Below, one piece after another: positions 2,611 through 55,686 of a DNA stretch of 59,554 nucleotides. The stretch lies in the NCBI GenBank assembly GCA_019894885.1, contig JAGXNP010000002.1, forward strand, positions 1 to 59,554, read 5' to 3'. The translations under genes and the position numbers were made by a program. The notes below the pieces were generated by a model, which was given only the letters and a program-made list of their open reading frames with translations, had not been told where the DNA came from and did not search any database. Position 1 is the stretch's first letter, and each line of letters begins with the position of its first letter. Origin of the DNA: Promethearchaeota archaeon. Lineage in GTDB: Archaea; Asgardarchaeota; Lokiarchaeia; Sigyniarchaeales; SOKP01.

Positions 2611-3546
2611 TTATATTTCTAAATTAATTGTAAACTTTGCTATTTCTTTTTTTTTTTCTTTTGAGACCATTAAGGTATCAAAACAATAAGTGTTTATATC
2701 CATTTCCTTAATAATCGGCTTTAATGCACAATCTTTATTATCAATGATGAAATGGCTTATTATATCTCTATAATAATGCGCCACTCCAACACAAGAAACT
2801 TCGAGTCCCAGATGTTTCATCATTTTATCTGCTGGACCTTTTACTGTTGCCCCTTCTATAATTGGGCTTATAGCAATTACTTTTTGTTTGATGTTTTTTA
2901 AGGTTTTCCTAATTCCTGGAATCGTAAGTATAGTACCAATGGAGACTACAGGGTTCGAAGGACAAATTAGAACTCTCTCAGCATGCTTTATGTAATCGAG
3001 TACCCCCTTAACTGGTTTTGCTTTATCAATGCCTTGGAACTTAATGTCTAATATTCTTGGTCTACAATTATATCTAATGAAAAATTCTTCAAAATGCATT
3101 TCTTCTGAATCGGTTGTAATTATTGTTTGAACACTCTCATTAGTCATTGGTATAAGATGAGAAGTTATCCCCATTTTTTCAGCTATTTTCATAGTGATTT
3201 CTGCTTTACTAAATCCCTTCTTAAAAAGATCAGTTCTATATATGTGTGTCGCTAAGTCTTTGTCTCCTAAATTGAACCACTTAAAATCATAAAATTGTTT
3301 TAAAGATTTTAAACAATTAAAAGATTCGTCTTGAAAACCCCATCCTCTTTCTTTATCTACGATTCCCGCTAAAGTGTAAGTTATTATATCAATATCAGGG
3401 CAGATTTGTAAACCGTATAATTCTATATCGTCACCTGTATTTATAATGATCTTTAATAAAGCGGGATCAATTACATTAGCCAAACCTTCTATAAATTTAG
3501 CCGCTCCTACTCCACCTGCAAGTACTAAATAATAATTATCATCCAT
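2611..3546 (-). CDS. cofD: 2-phospho-L-lactate (or EPPG) transferase CofD, F420 biosynthesis
   Basis: 311 aa. N-terminal LAGGVGAAKF nucleotide-binding motif and overall CofD/YvcK-family pattern. Lies next to cofE. Confidence 0.85.
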   Translation of the reverse strand: MDDNYYLVLAGGVGAAKFIEGLANVIDPALLKIIINTGDDIELYGLQICPDIDIITYTLAGIVDKERGWGFQDESFNCLKSLKQFYDFKWFNLGDKDLATHIYRTDLFKKGFSKAEITMKIAEKMGITSHLIPMTNESVQTIITTDSEEMHFEEFFIRYNCRPRILDIKFQGIDKAKPVKGVLDYIKHAERVLICPSNPVVSIGTILTIPGIRKTLKNIKQKVIAISPIIEGATVKGPADKMMKHLGLEVSCVGVAHYYRDIISHFIIDNKDCALKPIIKEMDINTYCFDTLMVSKEKKKEIAKFTINLEI

Positions 3547-3556
3547 ATTTTAACGC

Positions 3557-4972
3557 TCATTCTTCTTTACTTATCCTAAAGATAATATCTTTCAATTCCT
3601 TACGATAAGGTTTTTGAGTTGTTTTAGTCGAATAACCTACTGTAAAAAATGCCATAGGTACGAAAGAACTTGGCAGTTTCAGTACTTCCTTGAGAATTTT
3701 TTTTGCAAAAAAAGGTGCGCAATACCAGCACGCAGATAATCCTTTATTTTCAAATGCAAGAAGTAAATAGGTTGCTGAGGCGCTTACACTCTGCACTCCC
3801 ATAATATATTCATTAAATTCTCGTGTTTTATCTGAATAGGTCTCTAAATCGTGTGTATCCATGCATAGGAGTATTAAATAAGGTGAATTGAGAAATTGAT
3901 TTCTTGTTTTATTTATTTTCTTAAAAACATAATTATCTGATTTGCCTTCAGATATCAAATCTTCTTTCAATTTAGAATTCATCTTCTTAATCAAAGTTTC
4001 ACGAATCTTTCCCTTTTCAATTATAATATATCGCCAGAATTGACCATTGTGAGCACTTGGAGCCCATCGAGCTATATCTATACAGTCTTCTATCAGTTTA
4101 ATACTTATTTCTTTATCACCAAACTCTGATTTATAACTTCTCCGAGATTTAAGAATGGTTTCAAAATTCCCAGTTATATGTTTCTCTCTAAATAAATCTA
4201 TCTCGCTTTTTCTTAAAATTTGGTTTATAGAAGATTTTTCCATTATTGAATATTTATATCCCCTGATTATAACAACTGGTAGACCTTCATCCGCTTCTCC
4301 CATGACTAATTGAGCAGCAGAAGCTAAACTGTCAATATGTCCGATGATTGTACTCTGTAATTCTTTCCCATATAAATCCTTACTACCTCGCTTGTCCAAT
4401 ATTGGAGATATTCCCGAAACACCTAGGGCTACTCCTACTGCCCCCAATCTAAACGATCTTCCAAACGAGTCTGAAATTAATACAGCAATTTTTTTTTTTG
4501 TCAAATTTTGAAGTGAAATCCGGATTTTTTCGGCTTCTTTGTCTGAATCTAAAGGGAGCAAAGAAATTATATCCCCTTTTCCGACATTAGATTTATCAAT
4601 ACCTGCATTTGCACATATAAAACCGTGGTTCGTTTCAACAATCATTACATGCTCTGCTTTTAAAACTTGTCTCGATTCATCTAATATTGCTTGAATTAGC
4701 TTAGGACTTTTATCAGGCAAATTATTTTTTCTTATCAATGGAGCCATTATATCGTAGAGATCGAAAGCCTCCTGACTTGGAACGATATCTTCTATATTTC
4801 TTAGTCTTCCAAGACTTTTTGATATTATAGTTTGGGCGATAATCACAATGTCTCCATCTTCTAATGAGATACTGTTTTTTGTTAAAGCATTAAAAATTGT
4901 TGATGGAATATTGTCGCCGGTTTTTATTAGGGGGATATCTTCTACCCCGATAATTTCTATTTTTCCGCTCAT
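3557..4972 (-). CDS. cofE: F420-0:gamma-glutamyl ligase fused to a C-terminal nitroreductase-like domain (FbiB-type architecture)
   Basis: N-terminal ~250 aa is CofE-like (IIAQTIISK..., NAGID.SN, LLP.D.D). The C-terminal half carries the nitroreductase signature ARWAPSAHNGQFWRY. 10 nt upstream of cofD. Confidence 0.8.
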   Translation of the reverse strand: MSGKIEIIGVEDIPLIKTGDNIPSTIFNALTKNSISLEDGDIVIIAQTIISKSLGRLRNIEDIVPSQEAFDLYDIMAPLIRKNNLPDKSPKLIQAILDESRQVLKAEHVMIVETNHGFICANAGIDKSNVGKGDIISLLPLDSDKEAEKIRISLQNLTKKKIAVLISDSFGRSFRLGAVGVALGVSGISPILDKRGSKDLYGKELQSTIIGHIDSLASAAQLVMGEADEGLPVVIIRGYKYSIMEKSSINQILRKSEIDLFREKHITGNFETILKSRRSYKSEFGDKEISIKLIEDCIDIARWAPSAHNGQFWRYIIIEKGKIRETLIKKMNSKLKEDLISEGKSDNYVFKKINKTRNQFLNSPYLILLCMDTHDLETYSDKTREFNEYIMGVQSVSASATYLLLAFENKGLSACWYCAPFFAKKILKEVLKLPSSFVPMAFFTVGYSTKTTQKPYRKELKDIIFRISKEE

Positions 4973-4997
4973 AATCTTAAATCTCCTTTTTAAAAAA

Positions 4998-6050
4998 TTA
5001 AATCTTATAATTCTTTAAATCTGAATCCTTGCTTTCTGCGTATTTTTCAAATTTATCTGGAATCGCACAACACGCTGAGAAGAAATTGAAGAAAACTTCA
5101 GGATCATAATTTTTTACCCATTTTAATGTATTTTTTGAAGGTATTTCAATCCTATTTATTCCAGCTTTAATAGCATATTTTTCTATCTCTAATTTCACTT
5201 CACCTCTTGGCCTCATACACCCTAAGGAAATTTCTGTGTCTGGGTAGACAAATCTAGTAATCGCACTAATTTTTGCGATATCACTTGGTTGAGGTCTTAG
5301 AAAATTATTTTCAGAATTATTTGGAGGGATTAAAGCAATCAATACTATTAACGAGGGATTCAATCCCGATTCTTTCAAAAACTTAATTGTTTCCAATTCT
5401 TTGTGAATCTTACCATAGAATAACCCTATACAAATGTGAGGAACGATATTTATTCCATATTTTTGCATGAAACTGATTGCTTTTTTATAATCGTCAATAT
5501 CTTTGTTTAAATGGTAAATATTGTTTATTATGTCTTTATCCATAGTAACATCAAAAGAAACGATATCAACTCCTACAAGTGCTAATTTTTTTGCAGTTTC
5601 TTCACTAAGCAACCCAGTATGAGCGTTGATTATTAAATTAGTTTTCTTCTTGATTTCTTTAATGGTATCTAAAAAGTTTAATAAAGGAACTGAACCATCG
5701 GGAAGACATCCTCCCGAAATTAAAACACCGATTCCATCGTTTTTGTATAATTTTAACAAATAGGATTTTAATTCGGAGTTATTCAGGATTGGTTTCATAT
5801 CTTTTAGATATTTTTTATTACAATGTTCGCAGTGTAATGAACATTCACTTCCAGTAATGCTGATGGCTGGAAACCGTTTGTTGGGGATATAAATTTTTAA
5901 TAGATTTCCAAATTTTCTCTTCTTTACTTTATAAGCAAGATTTAAAATCGTTTCTAATTCTCTATTATCAAGTTTTAACAATTTTTCATAATCTGACCAT
6001 GTTTGATTACCTAATTCAAATCTTTTAAATAGATCCTTAATATCATTCAT
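4998..6050 (-). CDS. Radical SAM protein, candidate subunit of a LipS1/LipS2-type lipoyl synthase
   Basis: CxxxCxxC motif (ECSLHCEHCN). ATG at 6050 overlaps the lplA stop as ATGAATGA, which I prefer to the track start at 6092. TIM-barrel-like radical SAM length. Confidence 0.65.
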   Translation of the reverse strand: MNDIKDLFKRFELGNQTWSDYEKLLKLDNRELETILNLAYKVKKRKFGNLLKIYIPNKRFPAISITGSECSLHCEHCNKKYLKDMKPILNNSELKSYLLKLYKNDGIGVLISGGCLPDGSVPLLNFLDTIKEIKKKTNLIINAHTGLLSEETAKKLALVGVDIVSFDVTMDKDIINNIYHLNKDIDDYKKAISFMQKYGINIVPHICIGLFYGKIHKELETIKFLKESGLNPSLIVLIALIPPNNSENNFLRPQPSDIAKISAITRFVYPDTEISLGCMRPRGEVKLEIEKYAIKAGINRIEIPSKNTLKWVKNYDPEVFFNFFSACCAIPDKFEKYAESKDSDLKNYKI

Positions 6051-6834
6051 ATTTTTCCAACCAATTCTTATTAGAATATTTTTTGGACACAAGTTTATCT
6101 GCTAAATCCAATTCATAATCTGTGAAATTTCCATCTATTAATTTAATTCCTAATGTCGCTTCGAAACCAGCTTTAAGATAACACAAGAAGTTCGTTTCAT
6201 CATATTGGTCTAATCGTTCTTTGATGCCGATGCACTTCGCAAATACAGATTTCACCATTTTAGTTTTCCCTACATTATAAGGTGCTTTTAAAACGGAATA
6301 CATAAGGTTAGGTTCAAGTTCCAATAAAATTGTTCCATGTTGAAGGAGATACCCCTTCTTTCTTATCTGTGCATTTCCTGAAAATTTCTTTCCATCTATA
6401 AAAATAGCAGGGCAATGAATAACTCCCTTTTGAGGTTGCAAGCCATATTGTGATAAAGCATTAACTATACCCGCCTCGATAATTTCAAATTGCTCAATCA
6501 CTTTCTTAGCGTTAAGGTTTTCTAGAAATTTCAGTGGACATACAATAGAATATGTAATTTCACGAGTACTATCATGAAATACAGCACCACCTCCTGTTAT
6601 CCTCCTTACAACATTAAAACCTTTTTCTTTAACAGTATTCAAATCTACTTCGTTAGAAATACTTTGATTTCTACCAATGGATACAGTTGATGGTTCCCAT
6701 TTAAAAAATCTTAGAGTATTAGGAATTTTTTTTTCTATAGCTGCATTTAGCATCGCTTCATCTAAAGCCATATTCCAATATCCATTTCTAGTTTCTAAGG
6801 GAAGAAATCTCCATTCTTTCAAGCCTTTTACCAC
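6043..6834 (-). CDS. lplA: Lipoate-protein ligase A, catalytic (N-terminal) domain type
   Basis: 263 aa. RRITGGGAVFHD and GKKFSGNAQ (lipoyl-AMP lysine region) motifs. GTG start overlaps the upstream radical-SAM stop by 1 nt (TAGTG). Confidence 0.85.
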   Translation of the reverse strand: MVKGLKEWRFLPLETRNGYWNMALDEAMLNAAIEKKIPNTLRFFKWEPSTVSIGRNQSISNEVDLNTVKEKGFNVVRRITGGGAVFHDSTREITYSIVCPLKFLENLNAKKVIEQFEIIEAGIVNALSQYGLQPQKGVIHCPAIFIDGKKFSGNAQIRKKGYLLQHGTILLELEPNLMYSVLKAPYNVGKTKMVKSVFAKCIGIKERLDQYDETNFLCYLKAGFEATLGIKLIDGNFTDYELDLADKLVSKKYSNKNWLEKYE

Positions 6835-7841
6835 TATTTTTTATGAATAGTATTAATTAAACTTTTAAAAATATCATCTATCTCATGTTTTAATAATGTT
6901 CTTGGATAATTATAAATGGGACCCGAAGGTCTTGATGTATAGTAAGGACGGTTGCAACCCGGACAGCCCGAAGTTAAAAACGCATCCGTATTGCAAATAA
7001 TATACCATAACTCCTTCTTAAATAAATTAAACTTAATAATTTCACCAAAATTATTAAAAGTAAAGTCCTTAAGAGTTCTATTATTGCTCACTAAAAGATA
7101 TCTTCCTAATTGTATTTTTCTAAAATTGAATAAATCTGGTTGGTTTAAATTTTCAAGTAATGTCCCTTTTATTGGCATAAATGCAAAAAGACTTACTCTT
7201 ATTCTTAAATCGTGAAGTTTCTTAATCATTTTCAGGATTTCAAGTGCAGTTTCTCCCAATCCCACTATTAAATGTGTTGTAACATTTCCCTCTCCAAAAA
7301 TTGTAAGCGCTTCTTTGAGATTTTGAATGTGGTTATCCCAATTATAAGGTCCTTTTACTATTTTTCCTTTTATGCGTTCAAAAATTTCAGGCGTAGCACC
7401 ATCAAGAGCTATACCCACCCTATCCACACCGAGAAGTTTTATTCTTTCTAAATTTTCTTTCCCCATCGGCGGTATTGCAGTAGATATTGGAATATTGCAT
7501 TTTTTTTTAATCTGGGTAACAATTTCTACAAGATCTTGAAAATTTTGCAAATAGTTTAAAGTTTGGATACAAATTCTTTTAAATCTTTTTGTGTGTGGCA
7601 GGTAATTTATTTTCGTCAAAAAATCTTTAAAATTAAAAACTGGCCAACTAACACGCGATAATAATTCAATGGAACTTTCTGATTCTCTAGCTTGTGGGCA
7701 AAAACCACAATTTGCACTGCAATGACCTGCTTTGTAGGTCATTAAATAGCATGTTGTAGGTACATCTTTAAATTTTTTAGTTTCATATAATCCAAGTATT
7801 GAAGCACTACCTATTGAAACCCTAATCTTTTCAACTGTCAC
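6834..7841 (-). CDS. Radical SAM protein (BioB/LipA-like), candidate second subunit of a LipS-type lipoyl synthase
   Basis: HCSANCGFCPQ CxxxCxxC motif, LIVGLGET motif typical of BioB/LipA-like enzymes, C-terminal Cys cluster CNTDAFLTSGCPGC. Overlaps the lplA start. Confidence 0.65.
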   Translation of the reverse strand: MTVEKIRVSIGSASILGLYETKKFKDVPTTCYLMTYKAGHCSANCGFCPQARESESSIELLSRVSWPVFNFKDFLTKINYLPHTKRFKRICIQTLNYLQNFQDLVEIVTQIKKKCNIPISTAIPPMGKENLERIKLLGVDRVGIALDGATPEIFERIKGKIVKGPYNWDNHIQNLKEALTIFGEGNVTTHLIVGLGETALEILKMIKKLHDLRIRVSLFAFMPIKGTLLENLNQPDLFNFRKIQLGRYLLVSNNRTLKDFTFNNFGEIIKFNLFKKELWYIICNTDAFLTSGCPGCNRPYYTSRPSGPIYNYPRTLLKHEIDDIFKSLINTIHKK

Positions 7842-13955: not shown

Positions 13956-14558
13956 TTATGAAGTGAATGAATGCTTTTTTTTAATTGCTTTCAATTCAGT
14001 AATTAACCAACATAATTCTTCGTATGTAGAAGAAGAATTTAAGATTTCTTGAGTTTTTTTCTCTATATCCTTCTTTGAAGTGATTTTTGGATACTTTAAT
14101 AAATTAAGCTGCAATTGGGCTAATATACTACATAATTCTTTATACGGTTTTTTTTCTTGAGAAAGCTTATGTGCTGCAATTGTGATTTCTCCCTCTAAAT
14201 CGGGATCTATTCCTGCTTCAATAAGCTCTACAGTCTCTTCATATTGTATCTCTAATTCTGGTCTTCTTTCTAAATTCTGCCTAGGTTTTATTCCTTTTTT
14301 TATAGAATTTTTTATAGCTAAGAATGAACCATATTCTTTATTTTGTTTTACTATTTGAATACTAATGGGTATCTCCTTTTTGTTGTTCAATAATTTTGCT
14401 TTATTAATCGACAACTCTTTTCTTTTCTTAGATATACTTGAACCTAACCACAAAAACAATGATTTTGCGTCATCTATTAAATACACTTCATCTTCTTTAA
14501 AATCTGCTTTACTAATTTTCTTAAGACCTCCTCTTACACCGACATTATATACTATCAT
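13956..14558 (-). CDS. Gelsolin/villin-type single-domain protein with helical C-terminal extension
   Basis: Residues ~15-85 (FKEDEVYLIDDAKSLFLWLGSSISKKRKELSINKAKLL...ISIQIVKQNKEYGSFLAIK) follow the gelsolin-repeat consensus (compare gelsolin G1: FFTGDAYVIL...YWLGNECSQDE...VQHREVQGFESATFLGYF). ATG start. Confidence 0.65.
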   Translation of the reverse strand: MIVYNVGVRGGLKKISKADFKEDEVYLIDDAKSLFLWLGSSISKKRKELSINKAKLLNNKKEIPISIQIVKQNKEYGSFLAIKNSIKKGIKPRQNLERRPELEIQYEETVELIEAGIDPDLEGEITIAAHKLSQEKKPYKELCSILAQLQLNLLKYPKITSKKDIEKKTQEILNSSSTYEELCWLITELKAIKKKHSFTS

Positions 14559-15462: not shown

Positions 15463-15963
15463 ATGAATTTAACAAGAGATGATTTGATACAATCAGATGC
15501 TACAATGAATCAAATGCGTAATATGATTTATCATTTAGAGAGATTTATGAAACTCAATGGAGTGTCCGAAATAAGAGATAAATTAAGGAGAATGGGGCGA
15601 AATATTGCCCGAACTTATATAAAATATTGGAAACCAATTGATATTGTTAATAAAGCTAATTTAAATGATGTGATAACCACAATCTATAAAAAGATCTTAA
15701 ATAGCTCGGTTTCAGTGGATTTTGATGAAACAAATAAGATCGTCATGGTTAAAGATAATGACTGCTCTTTATGTAAATATCATTTTAACGATATCGATGT
15801 TGCGGGATGTGAAATTATTGCAGCAATGCTATCAGAAATTATAAATTGTATTAATAAAGAAAAATCTTCATTAATACTAGAACCACTTGATATTCTTGAA
15901 TCTCAAACATTTGGACACAAATCATGTATTCAAAGCTTTAAATACAAAGAGGGAGGTGTTTAA
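15463..15963 (+). CDS. V4R-domain protein (TRAPP Bet3-like fold)
   Basis: 166 aa. Pattern MGRNIARTY...VMVKDNDCSLCKY...VAGCEIIAAMLSEI...GHKSCIQSF matches the V4R Cys/Gly pattern. Confidence 0.6.
   Translation: MNLTRDDLIQSDATMNQMRNMIYHLERFMKLNGVSEIRDKLRRMGRNIARTYIKYWKPIDIVNKANLNDVITTIYKKILNSSVSVDFDETNKIVMVKDNDCSLCKYHFNDIDVAGCEIIAAMLSEIINCINKEKSSLILEPLDILESQTFGHKSCIQSFKYKEGGV
15952..15958 (+). promoter_or_regulatory. Shine-Dalgarno-like GGAGGTG, 7 nt upstream of ATG 15966
   Basis: Complementary to the conserved archaeal 16S 3' end. Lies inside the last codons of the upstream V4R gene, implying operonic coupling. Confidence 0.6.
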
Positions 15964-15965
15964 TA

Positions 15966-17441
15966 ATGGGAGCAGTTCAATGGTTATTAAAAAAGATCAC
16001 TAAAGTATTCGGTAGAAACACTACTTCTTTATATTATGTTCTTCTTTATCGTGAAATATTAAAAGAGATAAATGATATTACGAAAGATGAAGAGGATAGT
16101 ATTATTATACTTAGAGAGATCGGGAAGAAAGCTGCTACAGAATCATGTGAACGTCACACCACTGTTTTTAAATGGATGCCTGGGAGCCCAAGAAAAGTAA
16201 TTGAATATTTTGAACTTTTATGGGTTGTTGTTTTTGGAAAGGAATTAGAAGAGGGGGATTTAACTTACGAGGAACTTCCTAAAGAAAGCTCGAAATATAA
16301 CGATTATATTGTTAAGATAAAAAGTTGTCCACTTTGTGCAGGGTATGGGGCAGATGATGAGGATACTTTCAAATTTCAAAAAGTAACCAATAAAAATAGT
16401 GAAGGTCTTGCGTGCGGTTTAACGGGAATGTTAGAAAGTGTTGCTAATTTTATACTTAAAATAAAAAGGAGCGATTATAGAATTAATATTGTAGAGCAGA
16501 AGTGCTTAGCGAAAGGTGATGAGCATCTTCAGTTTATGTGTAAAATCTATGATTCTCTAGACTGGAAAGAGCTAAGTTCCGTTCGAATTCAAGATAAAAT
16601 TAAATCTGGAGTTAAATTTGAAGAGTCTATAGAAGAGGATGTTGTTCAAGAAACAAAGTTAGACATTATTGATAAACTTCAAGAAGTCTTATCTCTTGAT
16701 AAAATTGAGGAATTACTTGATGAACCCTTAGAGGGTATTAAGAGTAAAGTTGCTGAGATCATTGAAGATAAATTAAACATGGAACCCGAACACTTTTTCG
16801 ATTATTTTAGAAATTATGAGGACGATCTATTAAGAATCATTGGCTATCTCGCAGTTCACCTGCTTAATGAATATGGAGGATTAATCGAAAAAACTTTGAA
16901 AAATAGCACATTTGCTAAAATAGCAGGGTACCTTTTTAAACAATTAAGAGAATTTGTTTTATTGTTCATCCCTATTGATGTAATCAACGATTATCATCAA
17001 TTACTAATAAGTTTTCTTGATGGTTTAGCTCCAGCAGAGATGGTCGAGAATGTAAGACAATTCTCGGGTAAGGATGATATTAATTTTCTCTTTGAAGGAG
17101 CCCAAATGGCACTTGAAAATTTAGGAATTGACTTTTCAGAGCTAAAAGATAATGTTTGGGAAGAAATAAGAAAGGAAAGAGAAAACGGTTTACTTTCTTC
17201 GGATCAGTCAATGATGGAAAAAACTGAAGAAAACATCCCAAAAATTATAAAGATTATGCAAGAAATTTTAATGTTGTTAAGCGATATTTTAACGCTTCCA
17301 ATAAGAGTATTAATTTCTGAAAGCCATTATGGCCTTAAAACAGCTATTAACTCTGTAGTATCTGAAGAAGAAGGGTTGTTCGGGAGTATAAAAGATAGAA
17401 TTGATACAATTTTTGACTATGTTCAAGAATTAAAGCAATAA
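15966..17441 (+). CDS. V4R-domain protein (TRAPP Bet3-like) with ~300-aa acidic helical C-terminal extension
   Basis: N-terminal ~200 aa carry VKIKSCPLCAGYG...LACGLTGMLESVANFIL...EQKCLAKGDEHLQFMCKI, a classic V4R signature. The remainder is helical, Glu/Asp/Lys-rich and of no recognised family. Confidence 0.6.
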   Translation: MGAVQWLLKKITKVFGRNTTSLYYVLLYREILKEINDITKDEEDSIIILREIGKKAATESCERHTTVFKWMPGSPRKVIEYFELLWVVVFGKELEEGDLTYEELPKESSKYNDYIVKIKSCPLCAGYGADDEDTFKFQKVTNKNSEGLACGLTGMLESVANFILKIKRSDYRINIVEQKCLAKGDEHLQFMCKIYDSLDWKELSSVRIQDKIKSGVKFEESIEEDVVQETKLDIIDKLQEVLSLDKIEELLDEPLEGIKSKVAEIIEDKLNMEPEHFFDYFRNYEDDLLRIIGYLAVHLLNEYGGLIEKTLKNSTFAKIAGYLFKQLREFVLLFIPIDVINDYHQLLISFLDGLAPAEMVENVRQFSGKDDINFLFEGAQMALENLGIDFSELKDNVWEEIRKERENGLLSSDQSMMEKTEENIPKIIKIMQEILMLLSDILTLPIRVLISESHYGLKTAINSVVSEEEGLFGSIKDRIDTIFDYVQELKQ

Positions 17442-23113: not shown

Positions 23114-24223
23114 ATGAAAAAACTAAATATCTGCCTTATTTCTTTAACTGTATCTCCAGATAGTGTGGATGGCGAAGCAAAAGTCATCAGAGCACTTTTT
23201 GAGTATTTAAAAAAACAGGGACATAGCGTTAAATTAATCACTGGTAAATGGAATAAAGACTTAGGCACTCCAGACATTATTCAATTCGATTTAATCAGAA
23301 AAAGGTTTCTATGGGTGCTTCATTTTTATATTAAAGTCATTAGATACTTAAGAAGAAATAGATTCGATATTGTGCATGCAAATAGCGCAAAGGCTGCCTT
23401 ACCAGTGTTTTTATCCCATCAGAAAAAATTTATTTGTACAATTCACGATTTTACTCCTTTTGAAACACAACTTACAAAAATTCCATTGGAAAAACTTTTG
23501 ATTAAATTTGTTTCAAGGAGAGCCTCTTCGATATTAACTGTATCTAATTTTGTTAAGCAAGAATTCCAGCATTTTCTTCCCAATATTGACAAGAATAAAA
23601 TTAAAACGATTTACAACGGTATTGATGAAAAATACAAACCATATCCTAATGAAGCTCAAAAGTTAAAGGAAAAACTAAATATTCATGGTCCAGTTTTATT
23701 ATATGTTGGGAGAATAACACAATATAAGGGTGTGAAAAGTATAATCGAAGCTTATAGGCTAGTTAAAAGCGAAAATCCTGATATTAAGTTAGTTATTGGT
23801 GGAAAGCCTGATTTTTTAATGAAAAATGAATACAATAATTGGGTTGCTGATTATAAAGATGTTCGTTTTTTAGGTTTTATCCCCGAAAATGATATTCCAT
23901 TCTATTTTTCTATGGGAGACATTTTTATCACATATTCATCTTCATCTGAAGGATTTGGATTAACCTCTTTGGAAGCAATTTCTTGTGGAACTCCTGTTAT
24001 TTGTTCAGCAATTTCGGTATTTAAAGAAATATTAGAGGACCACGCGCTCTTTGTTCCACCTAGAAATCCCCTTAAATTAGCAGAGAAAATTAATATCCTA
24101 CTGCACGATGATGAACTAAAAAATCAATTAGTTATTAATGCTCAAAAATATATCCAAAAATATAGTTGGAATGCTGTAGGCAAAAGATTAGAAAAGGAAT
24201 ACGAAAAATTTATGAACCTCTAA
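23114..24223 (+). CDS. Glycosyltransferase family 4 (GT-B fold)
   Basis: 369 aa. C-terminal EGFGLTSLEAISCGTPVI (E-x7-E region) typical of GT4. Confidence 0.85.
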   Translation: MKKLNICLISLTVSPDSVDGEAKVIRALFEYLKKQGHSVKLITGKWNKDLGTPDIIQFDLIRKRFLWVLHFYIKVIRYLRRNRFDIVHANSAKAALPVFLSHQKKFICTIHDFTPFETQLTKIPLEKLLIKFVSRRASSILTVSNFVKQEFQHFLPNIDKNKIKTIYNGIDEKYKPYPNEAQKLKEKLNIHGPVLLYVGRITQYKGVKSIIEAYRLVKSENPDIKLVIGGKPDFLMKNEYNNWVADYKDVRFLGFIPENDIPFYFSMGDIFITYSSSSEGFGLTSLEAISCGTPVICSAISVFKEILEDHALFVPPRNPLKLAEKINILLHDDELKNQLVINAQKYIQKYSWNAVGKRLEKEYEKFMNL

Positions 24224-26759: not shown

Positions 26760-26911
26760 TTATAATTTTCTCAATTATTTTTATAATATAAATAAATTTA
26801 AAACAACACAAATAATAAGTTTTATCTCGAATCATATAAATAAATTTAATAAATTTTTATTAATGGTATTAATTATTGTTAGTTAATTCGAGTTTACAAA
26901 GGAATTTAATT

Positions 26912-28774
26912 ATGAGAAGAAAAAGTTTTTTCATTATATTTATTGGATTTTTATCTTTTATAATCGTATTCTCAGCTATTCAAGATGATTTTTCATATAA
27001 TTATCAACATGATTTATTAGTTGAAGACCCTCAACAATCAAGGACTTTAGAAGGAGCAGATAACCTTTTAGTGGTGAATATGGTAAGAACCACTAATTTA
27101 AGTTCCTATGGTTTAGTAAATATAAAAGATAGGCTAACAATCTTAAATAATAATAACAATCCGATTAATTCAATTTTATTTGGATTAAAGGTTGAACATT
27201 CAAATGATTTAATTTATTTTAACGCTTTTGGTGAAGCAAAGAACACACTTTTAATCGAAAGATCCCACGAAATAATGGACATTTACGAAATGATAACTAT
27301 TTATTTTGATATGCCTTTACTACCATCGCAAAAAATTACTTTTACTGTTTTGCATTCATATACGAATTTAATATCTTATCAGTTTGCTTTTATTGAAGAA
27401 GATATCACTCAACTTTTAGTATTTAAAGGATCATTGTTTCCTCTTTTACCCTATAAGAGCGAAGGAAACATTAAATCAAATTATCTGTTACCAGAAGGGT
27501 CAACGTTATATTCTCATACACAAATTGGGCCAATGGGAGTTCCGTTGGAGGGAACTAATGTATTATACGATTTAGAAGCAAATTTAGAAATTAACTATTT
27601 AGAGCCCTTTTTACTAAACTTAGATGAGAATAACGAAACAACTATTTCTGTAGACGATAGGTTATCATCAAAATTAGAAATAGAAAAGATAAACAAGGAT
27701 ATTTACATATCTCCCTGGGGTATTATTAAAAATATTGAAGAAATTACGATTGAAAATGCTGGAATTGTTGAAGTTGCTCTATTATCAATGAAAATTCCAA
27801 TCGATGCAATAAATGTAAAAGTTTATGACGATCTGGGAGAGGTCTTAGGAGTATCCCTTATAGATTCTATTGATGATGTTTCAACAAAAATTGTTTCTAT
27901 TCAATTATACCAGAATAGAGTTTCGCTGACACCGGCATCAAAATTTAAGTTTTTTCTAGAATATTATCTACCCCCTGAAAAATATATATCCTACAATTGG
28001 CTACAACAATCCATTTCAATAAACTTACTTACGACAAAATATGAATATTTAATATACGAACAAACTACCAATGTATTTATCGAAGGTTGTGCTAGTGTTG
28101 ACTATATGTCTTCACTACCAGAAGCTTTGCATAACTCAGGAAATTCCAAAGTTTTAGTATACAGCACAGAAAACATAAGTCCAATAGTAAAGAAAAATGT
28201 ACTCCTTACTTTTACTATTGATTTATTTGAAATATTTCTTAGACCTGTTGTGTTCGTTATGATCATTGCCTTATTGTCATCTATTTTCGTTCTAGCAATT
28301 AAAACTCTAAAAAGAGAGGAACAAGTATCGATCTTCAAAAAAGAATTCATCCCAACAAGTGAAATTAGAGAATTTTGTTCATTGTACGAAGAGAGCAATG
28401 CATTAGTGTTAGAAATTAGAAAAGCAGAAAGTGAGACAAAACGCAAGAAATTAGCAAAAAAGACTTATAAAAATTTATTAAGCAAAAACACGTCAAAAAT
28501 TGACCAGATTAAAGAAGAAATAAACCCTTTTAAGAAAATATTGATGGAGACTAACGATACATTCAATAATATTGTAAAAAGACTTGATGTGTTAGATGCC
28601 GAAAGAATTAGTATTTCGGATAGCTTAAATCTCTTGGAGACTCGATATAAAAGAGGAAAATTACCTTCTAAAGCAGCCTACCAAAAATTATCAATTGATT
28701 TCTTCAATAGACGAAAAAAATTAGATAGAACGATCGATAAGTATATTCAACAGCTAAGAAGTTATTTATTGTAA
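26912..28774 (+). CDS. Ribophorin I (OST1)-like protein
   Basis: ATG at 26912 is preferred to the TTG at 26876. Signal anchor, ~430-aa lumenal-type domain, one TM ([18 protein letters not shown]), ~150-aa charged coiled tail, the same layout as RPN1/Ost1. Local matches to human RPN1: [22 protein letters not shown] vs [23 protein letters not shown], and [12 protein letters not shown] vs VSHWGNIAVEE. Confidence 0.65.
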   Translation: [620 protein letters not shown]

Positions 28775-29609: not shown

Positions 29610-30956
29610 ATGATTCGGCTATCCTCTATGAATTGGGGTATTTTAGAAACAATTTACCTAGTTATATCTTTCATTGTTGGATTTGTTATAACATTAGTAA
29701 TTATCCCTTATATCATAAGAATCATGAAACGGAAAGGATATACAGGGATAGATATACATAAGACATTAAAAACTGAAGTTCCCGAATCTGGTGGGATTTC
29801 TATTATCATTGGTATATCAATTACTGCTATTTTACTGACTATATTTTTCCCAGATTTCTTTAATGAAATCTTGATTTTTGTTTTAACAGTAGTAATTTCT
29901 GGTTTTATTGGTTATATAGATGACAGAATCAAATTAAGATCAAGATACAAGCTGTTGTTAACAATTTTAACAGGAATAGTGATATTTTTAGCAAACTCTG
30001 TTGGTTTTATACAAATCGAATCTCCTACAATTCCCTTTTTGGGAAAATTAAGATTAAATGTTTTATATCCAATTCTCGTTCCTTTGATCGTTGCTGTTTT
30101 TGCTAATACAGTCAATATGTTAGAAGGATACAATGGTGAAGGCTCAGGGACATCGATTATTGCTTTATTTTCCTTGATGATTTGCTCTATTATATGGGAC
30201 TCCGCAGAAGGTTTATTATTTACAGTTATATCTTTAGCAATATTAATACCATTTTTCTTATATAACAAGTTTCCAGCTAAAATTTTTCCAGGGGATGTTG
30301 GAACACTAAGTATTGGAGCAATTTTTGCTTCTATCGCTCTGATTGGTTCTCTTGAATCAGCAGTTTTTTGTGCATTACTTATTCATATATTTAATAGCTT
30401 TTATGTCATTTATTCTGTAAAGGGGTTTTTCGAAAGTAGTGAAATTTCAGACAATAGAAGCGACATTTTATTATTAGAAAACGATTTTATAAAGGCTTCA
30501 GATCTAAAAAGCGCTGCTTTGACATTACCTCGGTTAATATTAGCTAAAGGACCAATGAAAGAACCAGATTTAGTCAAAAACTTCTACATAATTACGATAA
30601 TTTGTGGATTTTTTGCTATTTTAACCACGCTATTGATGGTTTCAACAACAACTCTTATCACAATAGCGATAATATGTGGTTTTTTTGGATTAATTACGGT
30701 AATTTTGTTGTATAAGTATCCTAGAATAAGGGGGATAGTAGTTCTCATGTTAATTTTAATCTTAGTAGGGTATTTATATCTTGTTGCTATTGATTTATTT
30801 ATCATCCCCATAGATTTTATAGATATTAATATTTTTGGTTTAGTAATACCTACTAATATTCTAATATCCTTAATTATAGTAATACCTGGACTTTTACTGT
30901 GGTATTATATCACTATTAAATACTTTTGGTCTGAAATTAATAAAATGAAGAAATAA
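29610..30956 (+). CDS. UDP-GlcNAc:dolichyl-phosphate GlcNAc-1-phosphate transferase (ALG7/AglH, MraY-WecA superfamily) with extra C-terminal TM region
   Basis: 448 aa, polytopic. GYIDDRIKL, NTVNMLEGYNGEGSG and FPGDVGTLSIGA motifs of polyprenyl-P sugar-1-P transferases. The last ~130 aa add extra TM helices. Confidence 0.75.
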   Translation: MIRLSSMNWGILETIYLVISFIVGFVITLVIIPYIIRIMKRKGYTGIDIHKTLKTEVPESGGISIIIGISITAILLTIFFPDFFNEILIFVLTVVISGFIGYIDDRIKLRSRYKLLLTILTGIVIFLANSVGFIQIESPTIPFLGKLRLNVLYPILVPLIVAVFANTVNMLEGYNGEGSGTSIIALFSLMICSIIWDSAEGLLFTVISLAILIPFFLYNKFPAKIFPGDVGTLSIGAIFASIALIGSLESAVFCALLIHIFNSFYVIYSVKGFFESSEISDNRSDILLLENDFIKASDLKSAALTLPRLILAKGPMKEPDLVKNFYIITIICGFFAILTTLLMVSTTTLITIAIICGFFGLITVILLYKYPRIRGIVVLMLILILVGYLYLVAIDLFIIPIDFIDINIFGLVIPTNILISLIIVIPGLLLWYYITIKYFWSEINKMKK

Positions 30957-50399: not shown

Positions 50400-51092
50400 A
50401 TGAAATTTCCCCTAACTGAAGTAAATGAGTTCTTTAAACCTACTGATGCCAAAGAGAGAATCACTTCATTATGGGGAGATTTTGGTGTTGGGAAAACTAC
50501 ATTATCACTTCAAACAGCTAATATATATGCTTTCAATAAAAAAAAAGTGCTTTTCATATACACAAAACCAAATCTTCCATTCAAAAAAATTAATGCTGTG
50601 TTTGAAAACAATTTAGAGGATGTTTTAGAAAATATTTTATTTATTCATACCATGAATTTTGACGATATATTCAATTTTATTTTTAATTTGGAATTTGCGG
50701 TTCTAAATGATTTAAAAACTAAAAATGGGACATTTAATTTAATAATTATAGATTCTATGACAGATTTATATCGATTAGAATTAAATCATGAGAAAAAAGG
50801 AAAAAATTTTATTCTGAATTATAGACTAAATCAATTGTTAGCTAATTTAGTTAATTTAAAACAAAAGTATGAGATAGGGATATTGATTGTAAATGAAATT
50901 AGTAAAAGAACTCAAGAGGGGCAAACTTACGAGGTGGAAAGCGGTGGTAATGTAATGCAATATTGGGTGACAAATTCTATCAAAATCGAACGAACAGATG
51001 TAGCAAACAACCGAAGGTTAATTTTACATAGGGGAAATGATAATATCTCATTTCTACTAAATTCTATGTTAACTAAACGCGGTTTTGAATAA
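50400..51092 (+). CDS. radB: RadB-like recombinase paralogue (RecA/RadA superfamily ATPase)
   Basis: 230 aa. Walker A GDFGVGKTTLSLQ, Walker B LIIIDSMTDLYR. Colinear with Pyrococcus RadB (GPYASGKTTLALQ ... VVVDSITAHYR). No N-terminal HhH domain. Confidence 0.75.
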   Translation: MKFPLTEVNEFFKPTDAKERITSLWGDFGVGKTTLSLQTANIYAFNKKKVLFIYTKPNLPFKKINAVFENNLEDVLENILFIHTMNFDDIFNFIFNLEFAVLNDLKTKNGTFNLIIIDSMTDLYRLELNHEKKGKNFILNYRLNQLLANLVNLKQKYEIGILIVNEISKRTQEGQTYEVESGGNVMQYWVTNSIKIERTDVANNRRLILHRGNDNISFLLNSMLTKRGFE

Positions 51093-54102: not shown

Positions 54103-54705
54103 TCACAGATCTTCAATATCTTCAAAATTTATGTTATAAACCTTCCCTTCCAGAGTAGTTTCTATCCAATTTGATAACCAAGGGCAATGTAATGGATTAT
54201 AACGATCAAGGTTAGTACTATTACATTTATTCGCAAAAGGACAGATTAAACATGGTTGGCGTGAAAAAACATCTAAAATGAAATCGGCTTTATTCCTATC
54301 AATTTTCCGATCTTTAATTTCTACATCATAAGATTCATTTATGGTTATGTGTTTTGTCCACGAGGCCTCCATTAACTCTCGATTTACTTTTATTTTTGAT
54401 TGTAGTGATAAGGTATTTAGAATTCTATCGAGATCGATTCGTTCCTTCTTTGTTATCTCTATTAGTTCCTCAAAATAAATATCCTTTTCTCGTGAGATAA
54501 TATTGAGAACTATTCGTTCATCCTTTTTTAAACCACGAGCCTCTTCTCTTTTCCTTTCCTCTATCCTTTCCAATCTTCGTTCAGATTCAGATGTTCCTTC
54601 TTCTTCCGTACCTTCGACTCTCTCCTTTACTTTACACTTATGTCGGCTAAGATACGCAAAACTGTTTCCACAATACGGACATACTTCTTTCTTTTTTTTT
54701 GCCAT
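54103..54705 (-). CDS. TFE-beta / RPC34(RPC39)-like winged-helix plus Cys-cluster protein with N-terminal zinc ribbon (tentative)
   Basis: 200 aa. CPYCGNSFAYLSRHKC, acidic linker, wHTH-like VLNIISREKDIYFEELIEIT...LSLQSKIKV. C-terminal QPCLICPFANKCNSTNLDRYNPLHCPWLSNW resembles the FeS-binding C-x2-C-P...C...P-x2-C-x-W/Y...W tail of RPC34/TFE-beta. Confidence 0.45.
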   Translation of the reverse strand: MAKKKKEVCPYCGNSFAYLSRHKCKVKERVEGTEEEGTSESERRLERIEERKREEARGLKKDERIVLNIISREKDIYFEELIEITKKERIDLDRILNTLSLQSKIKVNRELMEASWTKHITINESYDVEIKDRKIDRNKADFILDVFSRQPCLICPFANKCNSTNLDRYNPLHCPWLSNWIETTLEGKVYNINFEDIEDL

Positions 54706-54888: not shown

Positions 54889-55686
54889 ATGTTAAGAGAC
54901 CGACTTATTATGGGGGAAATATTTGAATTTAATATAATCGATAAGAAAAAAATCATTAGTAAAATTGAAAGAACAAAACATGAAAAAACTATAATTTCAA
55001 CTGGTTCCAAGAATTTTAATAAAATAATTGGTGGTGGCTTCTTTTCAGGTAAAGCATATGTAGTTTTTGGAGCTAACAAAACAGGGAAAACTCAGATATG
55101 TCATCAATTATCAGTACAGGTTTTTGAAAAATCCTTTAAAGTTGTTTATTTAGATACAGAAAACACCTTCCGTCCCGAAAGAGTTCGACAGTTAGCAGAA
55201 TCCAACAAATACAACAGTGAAAAGGCATTAAAGAATATTTACGTGTCAAAAATTATGAGTAACAATGCTCTTTTATTAAAACTTAATGAATTGGATTTAA
55301 TAATAAAATCCAATAACATAAAACTATTAATAATCGACTCTATTAATAACTTTTTCAGAATTGAGCGTAGCGATAACAAAATATCCTTCTTAAAAGCAAA
55401 AACCACATACCTTAAAATTTTAGAAAAGGTAAACAATTTAACTCAGCGGTTTCAATTAATTACAATTTTAACAGCTCAAGTAGCTCCAAATTTTATTGAA
55501 GAAGCGGTTGTTAAAGAGTTTCCTGTTGGAATACAATATTTAAATCACTTTTTCTCGGAAGTATTATATTTAAGCTATAAGGAAAAGGATATGATTTATA
55601 TTCATCTCGTAAATTCTCAATTTCTTCCTGAGAAAAAAGTAATATATACTATTACTAAACGGGGAATAGAAGATTATAAAGTGTAA
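54889..55686 (+). CDS. RadA/RadB-family recombinase paralogue (second copy)
   Basis: 265 aa. ISTGSKNFNKIIGGGF, Walker A GANKTGKTQICHQLS, Walker B LLIIDSINNFFR, C-terminal ITKRGIED (as in the RadB tail). No HhH N-domain. Confidence 0.7.
   Translation: MLRDRLIMGEIFEFNIIDKKKIISKIERTKHEKTIISTGSKNFNKIIGGGFFSGKAYVVFGANKTGKTQICHQLSVQVFEKSFKVVYLDTENTFRPERVRQLAESNKYNSEKALKNIYVSKIMSNNALLLKLNELDLIIKSNNIKLLIIDSINNFFRIERSDNKISFLKAKTTYLKILEKVNNLTQRFQLITILTAQVAPNFIEEAVVKEFPVGIQYLNHFFSEVLYLSYKEKDMIYIHLVNSQFLPEKKVIYTITKRGIEDYKV

Follow-up and report, generated by a model that had tools for sequence, protein, structure and literature searches.

Does a small gelsolin-like gene of Lokiarchaeal origin encode an actin regulator, and what does the C-terminal half of its product contribute? 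The gene lies at 13956-14558 on the minus strand of a 59,554-nt stretch of DNA (the window) from a Candidatus Lokiarchaeota metagenome-assembled genome (MAG), and encodes, from an ATG start, 200 amino acids (aa) plus stop (22.96 kDa). The protein combines a single N-terminal gelsolin domain with a conserved helical domain, here called domain X (or X), which is the architecture that defines the Asgard 1DGelX/GelX class of actin regulators. It is very probably an actin-binding protein of this class; that the gene is a short-linker member of these single gelsolin domain plus domain X regulators, working by the mechanism proposed below, is the reading we favor with less assurance. Few handles exist on the origin of a regulated actin cytoskeleton before eukaryotes, and Asgard gelsolins are one of them. 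The initial annotation of a single gelsolin-domain protein is real and was correctly read, and the gene itself adds little, since its class has been described and a Thorarchaeal (Thor) member has been assayed. What goes beyond that annotation is the finding that the C-terminal half is a modular domain, widespread among Asgard archaea and present behind gelsolin domains in hundreds of proteins.

The initial annotation gave no strand; the plus strand of 13956-14558 is full of stops. The translation of the minus-strand open reading frame (ORF) is identical to NCBI KGD68_00310 (hypothetical protein, Candidatus Lokiarchaeota archaeon, from a MAG), which agrees with the Asgard setting suggested from the sequence, and the same gene is also called on other metagenome assemblies. 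The G+C content is 28% for the gene vs. 30% for the window. There are 511 homologues at E≤1e-3, and nearly all of the 120 matches listed are 187-204 aa long and cover ~90-100% of the query; the gene is thus real. The motif strings quoted at first reading are all present and correctly placed: FKEDEVYLIDD at residues 20-30, LFLWLGSSISKKRKE at 34-48, ISIQIVKQNKEYGSFLAI at 65-82 and ELEIQYEETVELIEAGIDPDLEGE at 101-124. Residue-conservation counts given below are for 120 short-form homologues (of the 511 matches). The parts of the gene are as follows (evidence in parentheses).

13956..14558, minus strand: complete coding sequence of the short-form gelsolin + domain X protein (ORF list, translation, NCBI identity, homologues)
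14283..14558, minus strand: predicted gelsolin/cofilin-homology domain, residues 1-92 (Pfam, PDB sequence matches, AlphaFold2 [AF2], Foldseek)
14244-14282, minus strand: flexible linker, residues 93-105 (AF2)
14253..14267, minus strand: RRPEL motif, residues 98-102, a candidate WH2-like actin contact (conservation, phmmer alignment)
14208..14243, minus strand: predicted helix h0, residues 106-117 (YEETVELIEAGI), specific to the short form and modeled with the C-terminal domain (AF2)
14085..14207, minus strand: domain X repeat 1, residues 118-158 (DPDLE...ITIAAHKLS...PYKELCSILAQLQL) (AF2, conservation, hhalign)
13968..14084, minus strand: domain X repeat 2, residues 159-197 (KKDIEKKTQEIL-NSSSTYEELCWLITELKAIKKK) (AF2, conservation)

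Gelsolin domain, RRPEL motif and calcium sites

Pfam, PDB sequence matches and Foldseek all uphold the single gelsolin domain. Gelsolin (PF00626) aligns with residues 15-79 over profile positions 10-75 of 76, at 27.5 bits (gathering score 21; E = 2.8e-6). In a phmmer search of all PDB chains, the best matches are Thor 2DGel3 (7c2g, 1.8e-5), Loki 2DGel (7whg, 2.9e-5) and Heimdall 2DGel (7whf, 3.4e-4), followed by villin, adseverin and gelsolin. The full-length AF2 model, for which the alignment held 42 family members, has a mean predicted local distance difference test score (pLDDT) of 84.8 and a predicted template modeling score (pTM) of 0.48. Its gelsolin half contains strands at residues 2-6, 12-15, 25-29, 33-38 and 66-71, a long helix at 44-59 and a shorter helix at 77-88; the central mixed beta-sheet and long helix, whose absence, together with that of any profile match, the initial annotation had named as refuting its reading, are present in the model. 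Significant Foldseek matches in the PDB are to gelsolin-family chains only (probability 1.0), foremost those of Asgard archaea, including 7whg (root-mean-square deviation 1.4 Å over 80 columns) and Thor ProGel 7c2f (template modeling [TM] score 0.77, normalized to the target). The resemblance to gelsolin is far above chance, and on the model residues 1-92 adopt the gelsolin/cofilin fold, nearest to that of Asgard gelsolins with solved actin complexes. Given these relatives crystallized on actin, and the gelsolin-homology proteins that co-immunoprecipitate with Lokiactin (see below), we infer that the window protein binds actin as well.

The gelsolin domain is followed by a motif that is conserved without exception: R98, R99, E101 and L102 are invariant (120/120 short forms), and long relatives likewise carry E-R-R-P-E-[LF] after the gelsolin domain. 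In the phmmer alignment, nLERRPELE is paired with gILRRVQLE of Thor 2DGel3, in which LRRV is the ‘central WH2-like motif’ that touches actin in the crystal of 2DGel with actin, in a manner much like that of human gelsolin (PMC7444086). This pairing suggests that RRPEL extends the actin-binding surface. The motif resides in a stretch where the model loses confidence (pLDDT <50 at residues 94-97) which, together with the low full-length pTM, indicates that the two halves of the protein are flexibly linked.

Calcium ligands are largely replaced. In the phmmer alignments, Arg46 pairs with the Glu of the S-x-x-D-E that opens the long helix of Thor 2DGel3 and Loki 2DGel. BLASTP against human gelsolin G1, with the sequence and residue numbering that we take to be those of human G1, puts D66 opposite E24 and D96-E97 onto K45-R46, and ungapped extension of the alignment puts D109 opposite N58. 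Among the short forms, position 46 (Type II Glu, G1 E97) is Arg in 114/120 and position 58 (Type I Asp, G1 D109) is Asn in 115/120, while position 24 (equivalent to G1 D66) varies (E 68, Q 20, N 18, D 7 of 120). Because of these substitutions, the Type II and Type I ligands are not conserved, and the window protein lacks the set that marks calcium-regulated gelsolins (Type II acidic pair D66/E97 and Type I D109). Judged by these residues, the protein is probably calcium-independent. The apparent loss of ligands fits the calcium independence reported for Thor 1DGelX, and it has been stated in print that no single-domain Asgard gelsolin with the calcium residues is known.

Domain X and its distribution

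The C-terminal half is helical in both the full-length model and a model of the C-terminal domain alone, as had been proposed at first reading. The latter, built with AF2 from an 18-sequence alignment, is compact, with five helices, a pLDDT of 87.5 and a pTM of 0.81, and residues ~106-197 are accordingly modeled as an autonomous five-helix domain. The first helix, h0, spans residues 106-114 in the full model (15-22 in the domain model), and its segment contains an invariant Gly (G116). The helices of repeat 1 are at 121-134 and 139-154, and its invariant or nearly invariant residues are D120, E122, Y139, L142, C143, L146 and A147. Repeat 2 has helices at 162-173 and 179-195 and is the most conserved stretch of the protein, with S175-S176-S177-T178-Y179-(E180)-E181-x-C183-W184-L185 invariant in 119-120 of 120 sequences. 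Averaged over positions, the commonest residue has a frequency of 0.77 in the X half vs. 0.76 in the gelsolin half; conservation equal to that of the gelsolin domain, together with the AF2 model, identifies X as a real, selected domain.

The two repeats are related to each other. Aligned by hhalign (probability 97.7%, E = 1.9e-12), they pair ‘...I..aAY.ls....sY..LCW.LAE’ with ‘...I.kkAeeIf.ss.tYdELCWLIAE’. By this profile comparison the X core (~80 aa) consists of a ~38-aa helix-loop-helix, duplicated in tandem, that bears Y-x-[ED]-L-C-W-[LM]-[IL]-A-E.

The initial annotation recognized nothing in the ~110-aa C-terminal region, the villin headpiece included, and broader searches led to the same outcome. 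The C-terminal half has no match in Pfam or NCBIfam, even at E≤10; the fold of X has no significant Foldseek match in the PDB (best E 0.95) or BFVD (best E 1.0), and a 36-sequence profile of X has none among PDB sequences (best E 0.87). PDB entry 3ol3 (the M. smegmatis orthologue of Rv0543c, DUF3349-like) ranks in the top three for X by both fold (E 3.7) and profile (E 0.87). It was rejected as a relative, as both matches are insignificant and may reflect chance similarity between small helical proteins.

A profile of residues 93-200 was searched against 1.84 billion representative proteins and matched 95 at E≤1e-3, most of them over the last ~80 residues only (profile positions ~26-107, protein residues ~118-199), which correspond to X; the h0 region (profile positions 1-25) is matched by the closest relatives only. 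For the 20 longer X matches that were scanned, 17 have an N-terminal PF00626 domain (16 at or above the gathering score) and one has a GNAT acetyltransferase domain, with no annotated domain in the others. Two further database searches gave 156 long-form matches, all with both gelsolin and X; these records include Thor-, Odin-, Heimdall-, Hod- and Hermodarchaeota and Lokiarchaeia labels (depositors’ own). The X module is present in hundreds of Asgard proteins, in most of them behind a gelsolin domain.

When one genome per GTDB species was scanned for Y[DE]ELCWLI, a survey that covers only proteins with this exact signature, 85 relatives were confirmed and 80 loci kept. The titles of these loci name Promethearchaeota/-archaeia, Hod-, Hermod- and Thorarchaeota or ‘uncultured archaeon’, with the exception of one ‘Nanopelagicaceae bacterium’ bin. 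Gelsolin and X are both encoded at 66/80 loci. By ORF, short forms of 193-211 aa account for about 58 of the loci (in a few cases with a start-codon extension), long forms of 230-387 aa for about 13 and proteins without a gelsolin domain for about 8; 2 are truncated by contig ends. The 200-aa short form is the commonest architecture in this survey and is well conserved. The bacterial label belongs to ‘Candidatus Nanopelagicaceae bacterium’ contig DATKTW010000073.1 (locus L053, protein P0003), which encodes an 83%-identical copy beside window-type neighbor genes; because it shares these neighbors, the contig is almost certainly Lokiarchaeal and mis-binned. A wasp protein (P0156) and P0211 were set aside as relatives of X, since their matches are due to repetitive sequence.

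Across all searches, long forms are ~230-410 aa long, with an acidic, Pro/Glu/Lys-rich linker of ~50-225 residues. In the long-form alignment (A5; e.g., L003, L004, L005, L011, L026, L031) this linker carries one or two copies of V-V-x-W-L-x-Q-L-x-x-[YH]-R, an amphipathic helix followed by [YH]-R-x-[TSV] that is loosely WH2-like; the W-motif is present in 150 of the 156 long-form matches. Proteins of 113-129 aa made of the W-motif and X alone also occur on long contigs, one of them 793 kb in length. The short form differs from the long in having no W-motif, in having its own helix h0 (Y-E-E-T-x-E-L-I-E-A-G) and in the loss of the Trp of the first L-C-W. Since a short form and a long or mini form are encoded together in several genomes (DZ3M.111, loci L007 and L019; YT1_007, L015 and L022; LW40_45, L003 and L058), the two are paralogues.

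Some X domains are found in other settings, mostly on single metagenomic records. One resides behind a GNAT (Acetyltransf_3) domain (P0134), one ahead of a CxxC...CxxC zinc ribbon (P0164), and a 1288-aa Lokiarchaeota protein (P0127, MEJ2249281.1) ends in two tandem copies.

Proposed mechanism, alternatives and genomic context

Thor 1DGelX (KXH72031.1) binds rabbit actin with a Kd of 7.7 uM, vs. 337 uM for ProGel, and nucleates, severs and bundles filaments without calcium, with bundling at high concentration; its crystallization was unsuccessful (PMC7444086). Akil et al. (2020) hypothesized that 1DGelX has, in its C-terminal extension, a site that binds the side of actin (PMC7444086). In the mechanism that we propose for the window protein, the gelsolin domain and RRPEL would bind one actin subunit at the barbed-face cleft, the RRPEL stretch prolonging the contact of the gelsolin domain along that subunit. 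The flexible acidic linker would leave X free to make a second contact, in our preferred reading with the filament side or a neighboring subunit, which would enable a single gelsolin domain to sever or cap filaments in addition to binding monomers. Actin binding would be independent of calcium; the loss of calcium sites, as read from the alignments, is compatible with calcium-independent nucleation and severing by the window protein.

The step of this mechanism that concerns X itself, direct binding to filaments, is one we hold tentatively, at a little short of an even chance. The main alternative, possible though rather unlikely, is that X does not touch actin and is a self-association or partner-binding adaptor. 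X might dimerize, so that each particle presents two gelsolin domains and can cross-link, bundle or sever, or it might dock the gelsolin domain on a different Asgard protein or structure; the W-L-x-Q-L-x-x-Y-R linker motif of the long paralogues might be a further binding target of X. The occurrence of X as a stand-alone protein of 85-130 aa, behind GNAT, ahead of a zinc ribbon and in tandem in the 1288-aa protein would be expected of such an adaptor, as would its widely varying net charge. A pseudo-symmetric duplicated helical hairpin is a common oligomerization or peptide-binding scaffold, a type that X resembles, and dimerization would explain why Thor 1DGelX bundles filaments at high concentration. 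However, the fusions do not discriminate between the two readings, as actin-targeting modules are also reused in many architectures, and most of the non-gelsolin fusions are on single metagenomic contigs and could be artefacts of assembly or gene calling. We favor filament binding by X over an adaptor because nucleation and severing by the characterized member of the family require more than a single contact with actin, and because a GNAT-X fusion and X-only proteins are expected of a targeting module.

Several observations weigh against the mechanism with a filament-binding X. The full-length model predicts no arrangement of the two halves, its pTM being only 0.48. X is not consistently basic (median pI 5.5-6.9, range 4.1-9.4; the gelsolin half is basic, with a median pI of 9.6), and PDB fold and profile searches and BFVD give it no likeness to known F-actin-binding folds. 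X also occurs alone (many 85-130-aa proteins, some with a short preceding motif) and in non-gelsolin proteins, so that a general protein-protein module fits equally well. Published accounts have called X coiled-coil (2020, PMC7444086) or disordered (2025, bioRxiv 10.1101/2025.11.30.690169). That the X of the published Thor 1DGelX is the X described here is very likely judging from Thor-labeled relatives only: four such proteins of 280-281 aa (P0228, P0326, P0342, P0364) have gelsolin and X, with X E-values of 1e-17 to 1e-19, and none from SMTZ1-83 is among the 120 long-form matches listed. No gene for actin, profilin or another gelsolin turned up when 46 other ORFs of the window were scanned with Pfam, and synteny around the gene is not conserved. 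Finally, green fluorescent protein (GFP)-tagged 1DGelX associates only weakly with filaments in human U2OS cells and is concentrated at endoplasmic reticulum and nuclear-membrane, endomembrane-like regions (PMC7444086); this, the variable charge and the lack of similarity to known actin binders temper the case for filament binding by X.

The cellular location of GFP-1DGelX also bears on an improbable reading, in which the protein is a weak ProGel- or cofilin-like binder of monomers or filament sides, the gelsolin domain does all of the actin work and the C-terminal domain merely tunes stability, solubility or localization, e.g., to membranes. The TM score of 0.77 to Thor ProGel and the absence of calcium sites, as in ProGel, would agree with this reading. 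On the other hand, purifying selection on X and RRPEL is as strong as that on the gelsolin domain, and Thor 1DGelX, although its gelsolin domain resembles that of ProGel, far exceeds ProGel in activity on actin. We noticed no amphipathic or hydrophobic membrane-anchor features in X, although no formal test was made.

The genes around the gelsolin-X gene gave little guidance. Its same-strand neighbors encode a metallo-beta-lactamase (MBL)-fold hydrolase, thioredoxin, a ferredoxin-like 4Fe-4S protein and triose-phosphate isomerase. Only ~10/80 loci, those of close relatives, share this arrangement, while at 25/80 loci the short form adjoins Kae1 and Bud32 instead. A conserved functional neighborhood was rejected, as arrangements differ among loci and all of the genes are housekeeping genes; with neighbors of this kind that are not conserved, there is no operon logic, and the context gives no functional information. 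That the neighboring thioredoxin is functionally tied to the two invariant cysteines of X was considered and dropped, since the two genes are adjacent in close relatives only. Housekeeping neighbors would suit a gelsolin-like fold that does not bind actin, as in eukaryotic Sec23/Sec24, and that serves an unrelated process. This is very improbable, given that the nearest relatives by sequence and structure are Asgard gelsolins crystallized on actin, that the WH2-like segment is conserved and that Lokiactin of a cultured relative co-purifies with five gelsolin-homology proteins.

Other features of the window are recorded here. Two adjacent ORFs without a Pfam match, at 15463-15963 (+, 166 aa) and 15966-17441 (+, 491 aa), are kept beside the gelsolin gene in the ~10 closest genomes only. 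The ORF at 26876-28774 (+, 632 aa) matches Ribophorin I (PF04597, E = 1.3e-14), a eukaryote-type oligosaccharyltransferase subunit, and is another eukaryotic-signature gene, situated amid glycosyltransferase genes (23114-24223, 29610-30956). An F420 cluster at 2611-7841 (-) encodes CofD, a fusion of F420-0:gamma-glutamyl ligase and nitroreductase, two radical-SAM proteins and a lipoate/biotin ligase-like protein. RadA/Rad51-family paralogues at 50400-51092 (+) and 54889-55686 (+) are within 5 kb of each other, the first being short (230 aa) and a weak match. A second 200-aa ORF (54103-54705) is unrelated to the gelsolin-X gene.

Comparison with known systems

Villin, supervillin and dematin have a like design, in which a flexible linker connects a gelsolin-type domain to a small, autonomous C-terminal helical module that, as in the window protein, also occurs apart from gelsolin repeats; the analogy is functional only. 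The villin headpiece is a compact three-helix motif, whereas X is ~80 aa long with four predicted helices and an internal repeat. A whole-protein Pfam scan at E≤10 returned only Gelsolin, MPK1_gelsolin_C and CRIC_ras_sig, with no headpiece, and none is present among the fold and sequence matches of the C-terminal domain. That X is an Asgard-restricted, uncurated fold which targets proteins to Lokiactin filaments, a counterpart of the villin headpiece in role and not in ancestry, is a speculative and rather doubtful extension of the proposed mechanism. If it holds, Asgard cells would reuse X to recruit gelsolin domains, an acetyltransferase and large uncharacterized proteins to the actin cytoskeleton, and the 200-aa short form would be a minimal severing or capping unit.

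The Asgard 2DGels (7c2g/7c2h, 7whg, 7whf) provide the best sequence and fold matches to residues 1-92 and share with the window protein R-R-x-x-L-E (the WH2-like LRRV) after domain 1. They are calcium-regulated (PMC7444086, PMC9433394), and their calcium-coordinating Glu is replaced by Arg46 in the window protein, which also differs in having no second gelsolin domain (residues 106-197 are all-helical in the model, and there is a single PF00626 stretch). With neither a headpiece nor a second gelsolin domain, the protein is excluded from the villin-type and 2DGel classes. Thor ProGel (7c2f) resembles it in having a single gelsolin/cofilin-fold domain without calcium sites, but is a bare domain of ~88 aa, to which the window protein adds RRPEL and a 90-aa helical domain.

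The closest known system is the 1DGelX/GelX class. The gelsolin + domain X architecture was published for Thor, with similar ones stated for Lokiarchaeota (Akil et al. 2020, PNAS; PMC7444086), and the count given by Akil et al. (2022, PMC9433394) is two 1DGelX proteins for MK-D1 and three for Loki GC14_75. Lokiactin of L. ossiferum brings down five gelsolin-homology proteins in co-immunoprecipitation; one of them, B35_GelX (UYP44381.1), combines a gelsolin-homology domain with an extensive linker and an X domain, and two others are single-domain proteins whose role is unknown (bioRxiv 10.1101/2025.11.30.690169). Like the members of this class, the window protein has exactly one gelsolin domain, which is N-terminal, and a C-terminal part without a match in curated families, the PDB or BFVD; the class is Asgard-restricted, and the window protein is likewise encoded in an Asgard genome, a Lokiarchaeota MAG. 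Thor-labeled proteins of ~281 aa with gelsolin, RRPE[LF] and X belong to the same family. The long 1DGelX/GelX forms have an acidic linker of ~50-225 residues with W-L-x-Q-L-x-x-Y-R, whereas the linker of the window protein has 13 residues and no such motif; as a 200-aa short form, it also has the extra helix h0 and has lost the Trp of the first L-C-W. Lacking the long linker, the short form would serve well as a minimal construct in crystallography and in studies of X function. In contrast to the coiled-coil or disordered region of published accounts, the X of the window protein models as a compact bundle. The picture of X is thereby sharpened to that of a predicted compact, internally duplicated helical module, neither coiled coil nor disordered tail, which has no curated family or solved relative, is conserved like the gelsolin domain and is modular within the Asgard archaea.

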